Shown one piece after another: positions 56,539-56,811 of a stretch of DNA of 64,000 nucleotides. Positions within the stretch are counted from its first letter, which is position 1; each line of letters starts with the position of its first letter. The notes beneath the pieces are model-generated. The model worked only from the letters and a program-made list of their open reading frames with translations, searched no databases and had not been told where the DNA came from. The position numbers and the translations under genes are program-made. This DNA is from Escherichia coli (GTDB taxonomy: Bacteria; Pseudomonadota; Gammaproteobacteria; Enterobacterales; Enterobacteriaceae), in assembly GCF_044647545.1 (NCBI RefSeq), contig NZ_CP172818.1; one strand, 5' to 3'.

Positions 56539-56811
56539 TGCACCCAGCAGATAAAATATGAATTTAATCACCCGGATACAGCGATCAGTTTTATTCGACA
56601 GGGATTAGGCATCGCCTTATTACCAGAGTTAACGCTGAAAACCATTGCAGATGAATTGTGTTCCGTTCCTCTCGAACCAACCTTCTATCGACAGATTTCG
56701 TTGCTGGCTAAAGAAAAGCCGGTAGAAGGCAGTCCACTGTTTTTACTACAAATGTGCACAGAACAATTAGTGGAGAGTGGAAAATTTGATATGAGACAGG
56801 ATGGCGCATGA
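56539..56811 (+). pseudogene. yfaH: Remnant of a LysR-family regulator gene (C-terminal ~90 codons only; yfaH-like)
   Basis: Open frame encoding ...AISFIRQGLGIALLPELTLKTIADELCSVPLEPTFYRQISLLAKEK..., typical of a LysR effector-domain C-terminus, with no N-terminal HTH. Confidence 0.6.

Follow-up and report, generated by a model that had tools for sequence, protein, structure and literature searches.

The retention of a single copy of a short direct repeat at a breakpoint is the classic signature of deletion by slippage or by microhomology-mediated joining. Among pseudogenes, the closest counterpart of the locus analyzed here is yfaH of Escherichia coli K-12, which we take to be b2238, listed as a LysR-family pseudogene. 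The literature on yfaH was found to consist of its use as a marker site and of two entries in expression tables. The gene has served as the insertion site for a linked marker, approximately 10 kb from gyrA (PMC2714960), a use which suggests that its loss is tolerated. Furthermore, K-12 yfaH appears with changed mRNA levels in a transcriptome table of a CpxR study (PMC9600279), and by this entry the region may be transcribed, e.g. by read-through. Nothing specific was found in the literature on this locus as a LysR pseudogene.

We analyzed the corresponding locus in a stretch of 64,000 nucleotides of E. coli DNA, referred to in its whole length as the window. In K-12 TG1 the remnant lies 10.2 kb from gyrA, in agreement with the approximately 10 kb given for yfaH, and judged by position and length the relic in the window is apparently the same as the K-12 yfaH pseudogene. 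As an object, i.e. as a LysR-family pseudogene, it is already known, and alone it matters little, being one more copy of a pseudogene annotated in reference genomes. What is added here are its exact boundaries with their 8-bp microhomology, the loss of a gene pair, a population picture with four states, and a hairpin that is conserved as an independent element.

A LysR fragment between inaA and glpQ

An open frame of 90 codons plus stop was found on the plus strand at positions 56539-56811, between inaA and glpQ (Table 1), i.e. where the initial annotation had located it. The frame begins with a TGC codon directly downstream of in-frame TAA and TAG stops (56533-56538) and ends with a TGA (56809-56811); the other two plus-strand frames across the same interval contain many stops. 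Its 90-residue product matches the Pfam profile PF03466 (LysR_substrate) with an E-value of 1.1e-7 and 31.8 bits (cut-off 28), in profile positions 130-189 of 209 only, and the Pfam search gave no match to PF00126 (HTH_1). For comparison, the intact orthologue has PF00126 at residues 3-63 and covers positions 2-188 of PF03466 with 126.8 bits. Aligned to the intact 299-aa LysR protein of E. coli strain 2D, the frame is identical in 88 of 89 positions (residues 211-299), and its residues 17-82 correspond to positions 2-67 of the 68-aa NCBIfam model NF007272 (143.9 bits, cut-off 139). The first three codons (56539-56547) are not derived from LysR; they represent antisense MFS sequence that is open by chance.

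There is no ATG in the frame. The earliest in-frame ATG, GTG or TTG is a TTG at 56656, which is not accompanied by a Shine-Dalgarno-like sequence, and an exact-protein look-up of the resulting 51-aa ORF returned no record. A consensus scan of positions 56300-56950 found no sigma-70-like promoter, and no Rfam families were found at E<=1 within 56200-57000. The frame, the PF03466 match and the absence of PF00126 together bear out the earlier description of a LysR effector-domain C-terminus of about 90 codons, with neither an HTH domain nor the context of a start codon. Measured against a functional LTTR, the frame lacks the HTH, a complete effector domain, and a start codon and promoter for a product of ~300 aa. 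With less than a third of the effector domain left and no means of binding DNA, the stub would be inert as a protein, and judged from its sequence the segment is very probably a non-functional relic of a LysR-type regulator gene.

On the minus strand, a second stub is identical in 33 of 34 residues (97%) to residues 363-396 of a 396-aa MFS transporter. The chimeric ORF of 40 codons to which this stub contributes is a by-product of the deletion junction described below; it gave no Pfam match (including PF07690, MFS_1, 12-TM), and an exact-protein look-up found no called gene on record for it. An assignment of the minus-strand stub to ypaB was rejected, as ypaB is located upstream of nrdA. The 80 nt that separate the MFS stop from the start codon of inaA, presumably with the promoter and leader of that gene, are kept at 87% identity even in the "empty" allele (see below).

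Table 1. Features of the inaA-glpQ interval, in window coordinates.
Feature	Position	Strand	Basis or remark
inaA, left flank	55718-56368	-	as in the initial annotation
Spacer of 80 nt, MFS stop to inaA start codon	56369-56448	-	untouched by the deletion
MFS C-terminal remnant, 34 residues plus stop	56449-56555	-	matches the end of the 396-aa MFS protein
Chimeric 40-codon ORF, GTG start	56449-56571	-	antisense LysR codons first, then MFS tail
Deletion junction, lone surviving copy of CAGATAAA	56548-56555		alignment to intact alleles
LysR C-terminal remnant, residues ~213-299 (87 residues)	56548-56811	+	Pfam and alignment to intact protein
Perfect 10-bp inverted repeat CAGGATGGCG / CGCCATCCTG with 6-nt loop	56797-56822 (arms 56797-56806 and 56813-56822)		folding
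glpQ, right flank, last gene of glpT-glpQ	56831-57907	-	as in the initial annotation

The intact locus and its ancestry

In many complete E. coli genomes, the match to the inaA-glpQ spacer was confined to its right-hand 62%, together with a match in a second place. The intact locus of strain 2D (L001) has a gene for a 396-aa MFS transporter on the minus strand (4027-5217) and, divergent from it on the plus strand, the gene for the 299-aa LysR protein (5369-6268), with an intergenic region of 151 bp between them. This LysR protein has both the HTH_1 and the LysR_substrate domain, and is the presumptive regulator of the divergent transporter. The intact proteins (WP_000176733/WP_000176734 for LysR, WP_000660219/WP_000660220 for the MFS transporter) are found in E. 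coli 2D, IMT16316, O157:H7 and others. Immediately in front of the inaA start, there are 16 nt (56369-56384, ACCCTATCGCCTGTCA on the plus strand) that recur at 15 of 16 positions directly upstream of the MFS start (5218-5233 in 2D), and the co-oriented inaA and MFS genes hence have a near-identical leader/RBS region in intact alleles, which might be due to duplication or to shared regulation.

The ancestry of the pair was addressed with the intact LysR protein as query against one genome per bacterial species. The gene order nrdB-yfaE-inaA-MFS-LysR was found in Escherichia sp. MOD1-EC7003, Escherichia sp. E1V33 and E. whittamii, with LysR identities of 93-96%, and also in Pseudocitrobacter (63%), while two Kluyvera species (66-68%) have the order nrdB-yfaE-MFS-LysR. 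Downstream of LysR, glpQ-glpT was found only in those Escherichia loci that extend far enough, i.e. in E1V33 and E. whittamii, the locus of MOD1-EC7003 stopping with LysR. The synteny of the intact pair in cryptic Escherichia, Pseudocitrobacter and Kluyvera argues that the pair is ancestral at this position and that the E. coli remnant is derived, the window holding a 5'-deleted relic. The search for homologues with an intact gene at the same position, as had been proposed in the initial annotation, thus found such genes in these relatives and, encoding 292-299 aa with both PF00126 and the substrate domain, in 1,213 of 5,426 complete E. coli genomes; the deletion boundary is set to the base at 56548-56555. 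The proposed origin, i.e. an ancestral regulator gene deleted at its 5' end, holds as far as the relic is concerned; it falls short in naming the regulator alone, since the divergent MFS gene lost its 5' half too.

Between Escherichia and Kluyvera/Pseudocitrobacter (L016, L018 and L019 against L001), the MFS proteins are 84-86% identical and the paired LysR proteins 63-68%; evolution of the regulator is much more rapid than that of its presumptive target. One further occurrence of the locus was a 3.5-kb contig labeled "MAG: Collinsella sp." (L013, JAIJJM010000334.1), on which MFS, LysR and the end of glpQ are 99-100% identical to those of E. coli, and which is almost certainly a case of bin contamination.

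A deletion of 1,879 bp between two copies of an 8-bp repeat

In a pairwise alignment of the window to the 2D locus, the left homology extends up to position 4133 of L001 and the right homology begins at 6005. The 8-bp direct repeat CAGATAAA occurs twice in the intact allele, at 4126 and 6005; the window has a single copy and, relative to 2D, lacks exactly 1,879 bp. The repeat is embedded in a 12/14 imperfect repeat, ACCCAGCAGATAAA / ACCCCACAGATAAA (family D7 of the repeat search). The deletion removed the N-terminal ~362 codons of the MFS gene, the 151-bp intergenic region, which is the shared promoter region of the pair, and the first ~212 codons of the LysR gene, including the HTH.

Exact repeats of 8 bp or more with one copy in each of the two genes form 22 pairs, of which the CAGATAAA pair belongs to the shortest class and has the widest spacing; alternative pairs of 12, 11 and 10 bp, spaced 0.76-1.09 kb, are found in the same interval. 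The repeat search of the interval found no structural feature that explains the choice of the CAGATAAA pair. Inverted repeats that could bring the two direct repeats together were limited to a weak one (I8), which was rejected as the cause of a hotspot, as its arms of 11 nt at unequal distances provide no explanation.

From these observations, the following course of events is very probable. The ancestral state was a divergent pair between inaA and glpQ, consisting of the MFS gene (minus strand) and its presumptive LysR regulator (plus strand). A single deletion of 1,879 bp between the two CAGATAAA copies, presumably by RecA-independent slippage or microhomology-mediated joining, then took both 5' halves together with the shared promoter region. 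Left behind was a 34-residue MFS tail abutting an 87-residue LysR tail, neither of them with a promoter or a credible start. In the window strain, the relic probably represents a very recent and independent occurrence of the K-12-type deletion.

Distribution of alleles in E. coli

The population survey covered 5,426 complete E. coli genomes, in which the remnant state was defined as a match to at least 80% of the 462-bp spacer. Four states of the locus were seen, i.e. intact, with the 1.9-kb deletion, "empty", and with an IS1-associated deletion. The remnant is the majority allele with about 3,104 genomes, followed by the intact pair with 1,213 and an "empty" 202-bp spacer allele with 1,057 (about a fifth); other states, including the IS1A-associated deletion, account for about 52 genomes by subtraction. 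The same 8-bp junction occurs at the same position in K-12 TG1, O111, APEC O78, EC052, FHI_NMBU_03 and 12 metagenome contigs. Both stubs are annotated by RefSeq as pseudogenes ("incomplete; missing N-terminus") in e.g. K-12 TG1, O111:H8 and APEC O78. The "empty" allele, as represented by E. coli A32 (L004, 5001-5202), has retained 100 nt on the inaA side (87% identity) and, on the glpQ side, a compensated hairpin, with ~70 nt of unrelated sequence separating the two; it may have originated by a larger deletion or by replacement.

Other configurations were observed in single strains or small groups. An extra gene for a hypothetical protein of ~356 aa lies between the LysR 3' end and the glpQ hairpin in O157 (L005, 3711-4781), APEC O78 (L009, 2387-3430) and L011; it accompanies the intact pair in O157 and the deleted pair in APEC O78, where the gene is frameshifted. 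In E. coli GDSC2227PM (L011, 3081-4552), an IS1A element abuts a longer C-terminal MFS fragment and the LysR gene is gone. This is an independent and different destruction of the MFS-LysR pair, and inactivation of the locus has thus taken several routes. In E. coli F9792 (L006, 3580-3858), the 3' third of LysR has 78.6% DNA identity to the window, compared with 96% for the flank on the MFS side, and looks like a recombination import.

Decay of the older remnants

Compared with the window, the LysR stubs of the old deletion alleles are changed at 14-22 of the 243 positions, and intact alleles of ordinary E. coli at 0-6. Premature stops occur at differing places in the old deletion alleles of O111, EC052 and FHI_NMBU_03. 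In addition, the old deletion alleles share the substitutions H to Q, I to M and S to N at residues that are invariant in all intact alleles sampled, including those of the cryptic clades. Judged by this decay and by the existence of the "empty" allele, there is no detectable constraint on the remnant body.

In K-12, the stub starts at an ATG gained by the I to M substitution and has 68 residues, ending in ...GKI; the K-12 remnant ORF is thereby of the same length as the NF007272 model (68 aa). A run of five A residues is found in most alleles, and one of four (56781-56784, plus strand) in the lineage of 2D, IMT16316 and the window. The shorter run changes the C-terminus from ...GKI, in a protein of 292 aa, to ...GKFDMRQDGA, in one of 299 aa. 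It is due to this lineage-specific contraction by one nucleotide that the window frame continues for seven more codons and reaches the loop of the hairpin, in which its TGA is situated. The frame had indeed been said to end at the hairpin on the glpQ side.

Probable independent origin of the deletion in the window

Positions 30000-54000 of the window are 100.0% identical to several complete genomes, e.g. IMT16316 (ST648-like). Over ~60 kb, the window and IMT16316 differ by two mismatches and a few small indels (about 99.95% identity), none of which is located in the remnant, and IMT16316 carries the intact MFS-LysR pair. In the stretch 53908-56547, the differences from IMT16316 amount to one SNP at the nrdA 3' end and a 3-nt (GTG) indel in the nrdA-nrdB spacer (sites 54002 and 54159). 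With so few differences in this stretch, the 1,879-bp deletion must be very recent.

None of the 5,426 complete E. coli genomes gave a full-length match to the window remnant above 96.5%. A degenerate 34-nt junction pattern retrieved 12 contigs from metagenomes, all 12 of which were of the K-12 type (G at 56542 and 56558) and none of the window-type junction haplotype. Four variants, i.e. 56514T, 56571G, 56586G and 56588A, are present in every other deletion allele examined and in no intact allele sampled from ordinary E. coli. All four are absent from the window, as are the further differences of the K-12-type alleles at 56542 and 56558, which are situated 6 and 3 nt from the repeat. Instead, the window remnant is identical to the corresponding sequence of the intact IMT16316 allele and near-identical to the 2D haplotype. 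Descent from the K-12 deletion event would be recognized by shared deletion-specific variants, and the window has none of these.

Compared at the base level, the identical junction thus probably arose twice, once independently in the window strain. A new deletion on an ST648-type haplotype is more parsimonious than a derivation from the old deletion, since the latter requires import of a foreign allele and two crossovers within ~13 and 26 bp. Accordingly worded with some reserve, we lean towards the CAGATAAA pair being a recurrent deletion site, at which the K-12-type remnant and the window remnant stem from two independent, base-identical deletions of 1,879 bp. If this is true, either a local mechanistic hotspot or selection for the fullest removal of the module, sparing the inaA promoter and the glpQ hairpin, would be implied. 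A similar double knockout could have come from any of 21 other exact pairs with repeats of 8 bp or more, several of which are longer and less far apart, and the recurrence would have taken place in spite of these. If confirmed, the recurrence would offer a clear-cut case from nature of genes lost in parallel at a hotspot of deletion, and shared deletion junctions could not be regarded as safe proof of common descent.

The hairpin next to glpQ

The inverted repeat listed in Table 1 is found about 9-34 nt downstream of the glpQ stop codon (TAA, minus strand). On the glpQ strand, a 91-nt segment is predicted to fold with -23.7 kcal/mol (z -4.15 against shuffled sequences), and the values for the plus strand are -31.4 kcal/mol and z -6.5, respectively. 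A stem-loop 10-13 nt after the glpQ stop is present in intact, deleted, "empty" and O157-type (extra-gene) alleles. Across eight distinct hairpin sequences, 12 base pairs are predicted, of which two show compensatory double changes and none is systematically broken, and F9792 has an unrelated hairpin with a canonical T-run at the same place. As the hairpin is kept where LysR is absent ("empty" allele) or separated from it (O157 type), the element belongs to glpQ and not to the regulator, and it is likely the only part of the interval with a function.

A U-tract 3' of the stem is absent, the tail being UCUCAUAUC and no U-run following the stem (UCUCAUAUCAAAUUUU), and a consensus scan of 56300-56950 found no terminator-like sites. 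Nothing specific was found in the literature on a glpTQ terminator. From its structure and position, the hairpin is a putative terminator and/or 3'-end stabilizer of the glpT-glpQ transcript, and both roles are equally compatible with the data.

Alternative explanations

Several other readings of the remnant were considered. That the LysR gene is intact and the fragment an illusion of annotation, with a start and HTH further upstream, is virtually inconceivable: alignment to intact alleles, which have 1,879 bp more at exactly this point, rejects it. No upstream in-frame start with an HTH domain was found, the two stops directly adjoining the frame and being followed upstream by the antisense 3' end of the MFS gene and then by the inaA leader; nor is there any PF00126 match. 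It is also extremely improbable that the remnant gives rise to a small protein with its own function, e.g. in titrating another LysR protein. Such a role could be read from the open frame of 90 codons, from the 68-aa ATG-initiated ORF of the K-12-type alleles, which NCBIfam has modeled as a family and from which a small protein is conceivable in the lineages concerned, and from the presence of K-12 yfaH mRNA in a differential-expression table. However, the recent date of the deletion suffices to explain why the window frame is still open, and in other deletion alleles it is interrupted by stops at different places. The window has no ATG, a TTG (56656) without a Shine-Dalgarno-like sequence and no promoter-like site, the product would comprise less than one third of the effector domain, and the sequence is missing altogether from about a fifth of E. 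coli. A role in cis, for which the body of the remnant would be kept, either to space or insulate the inaA promoter from the convergent end of glpQ or to provide upstream regulatory sites for inaA, would fit its status as the majority allele (3,104 of 5,426 genomes) and the position of the MFS stub directly upstream of the inaA promoter region. Yet the "empty" allele (1,057 genomes) has ~70 nt of unrelated sequence in place of the stretch from ~100 nt upstream of inaA to the hairpin, and the 6-9% divergence of the old LysR stubs from intact alleles, against about 2% among the latter, is consistent with neutrality, and we regard this role as highly unlikely.

The origin of the junction leaves more to be weighed. 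The deletion in the window might be the ancient K-12 event itself, with flanks overwritten up to the junction by DNA of the intact type, or else an artifact of assembly on a deletion-carrying reference. All deletion alleles do, after all, have a junction identical to the base, extension of a heteroduplex would be halted by heterology precisely there, and flank replacement does occur, as seen in the mosaic FHI_NMBU_03 allele, whose right flank is intact-like from ~35 nt off the junction. Against this stand the near-identity to IMT16316 over ~60 kb (two mismatches and a few small indels, none in the remnant) and the lack of all four deletion-only variants as well as of those at 56542 and 56558. 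Overwriting would moreover take the import of a foreign allele and two more crossovers, within ~13 and 26 bp of the junction. An assembly guided by K-12 is disfavored, as the window follows the structure of IMT16316 wherever K-12 differs structurally; an artifact could still stem from the reference of another deletion-type strain. Taken as a whole, an ancient event or an artifact is an unlikely source of the window allele, and a recent, independent deletion remains the preferred reading.

Comparison with known systems

K-12 yfaH resembles the window locus in the arrangement of inaA, remnant and glpQ, in the CAGATAAA junction, in the C-terminal LysR fragment and in the match to NF007272. The K-12-type allele is, however, old, differing from the window at 22 of ~454 remnant positions, and has a gained ATG, the 68-aa ORF and the ancestral ...GKI stop. 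The window allele, in contrast, shows no difference from intact genes of the ST648 type, is devoid of an ATG and ends seven codons later, in the loop of the hairpin. The intact LysR-MFS pair of 2D, IMT16316 and O157:H7 has the same flanks, and the window matches it at 99% in LysR residues 211-299 and at 97% in MFS residues 363-396, but has lost the HTH together with most of the effector domain, as well as the promoter region between the two genes and 362 transporter codons.

With intrinsic terminators, the glpQ hairpin has in common a GC-rich perfect stem of 10-12 bp, a position 10-13 nt past the last gene of the operon and compensatory changes; it differs from them in having no U-run after the stem and in not being called by the consensus scan. 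Lastly, the deletion is like the slippage deletions described between short direct repeats in E. coli, in that one 8-bp copy was kept and the intervening DNA was lost precisely, although here the repeat is short and the spacing, at 1.9 kb, is long.
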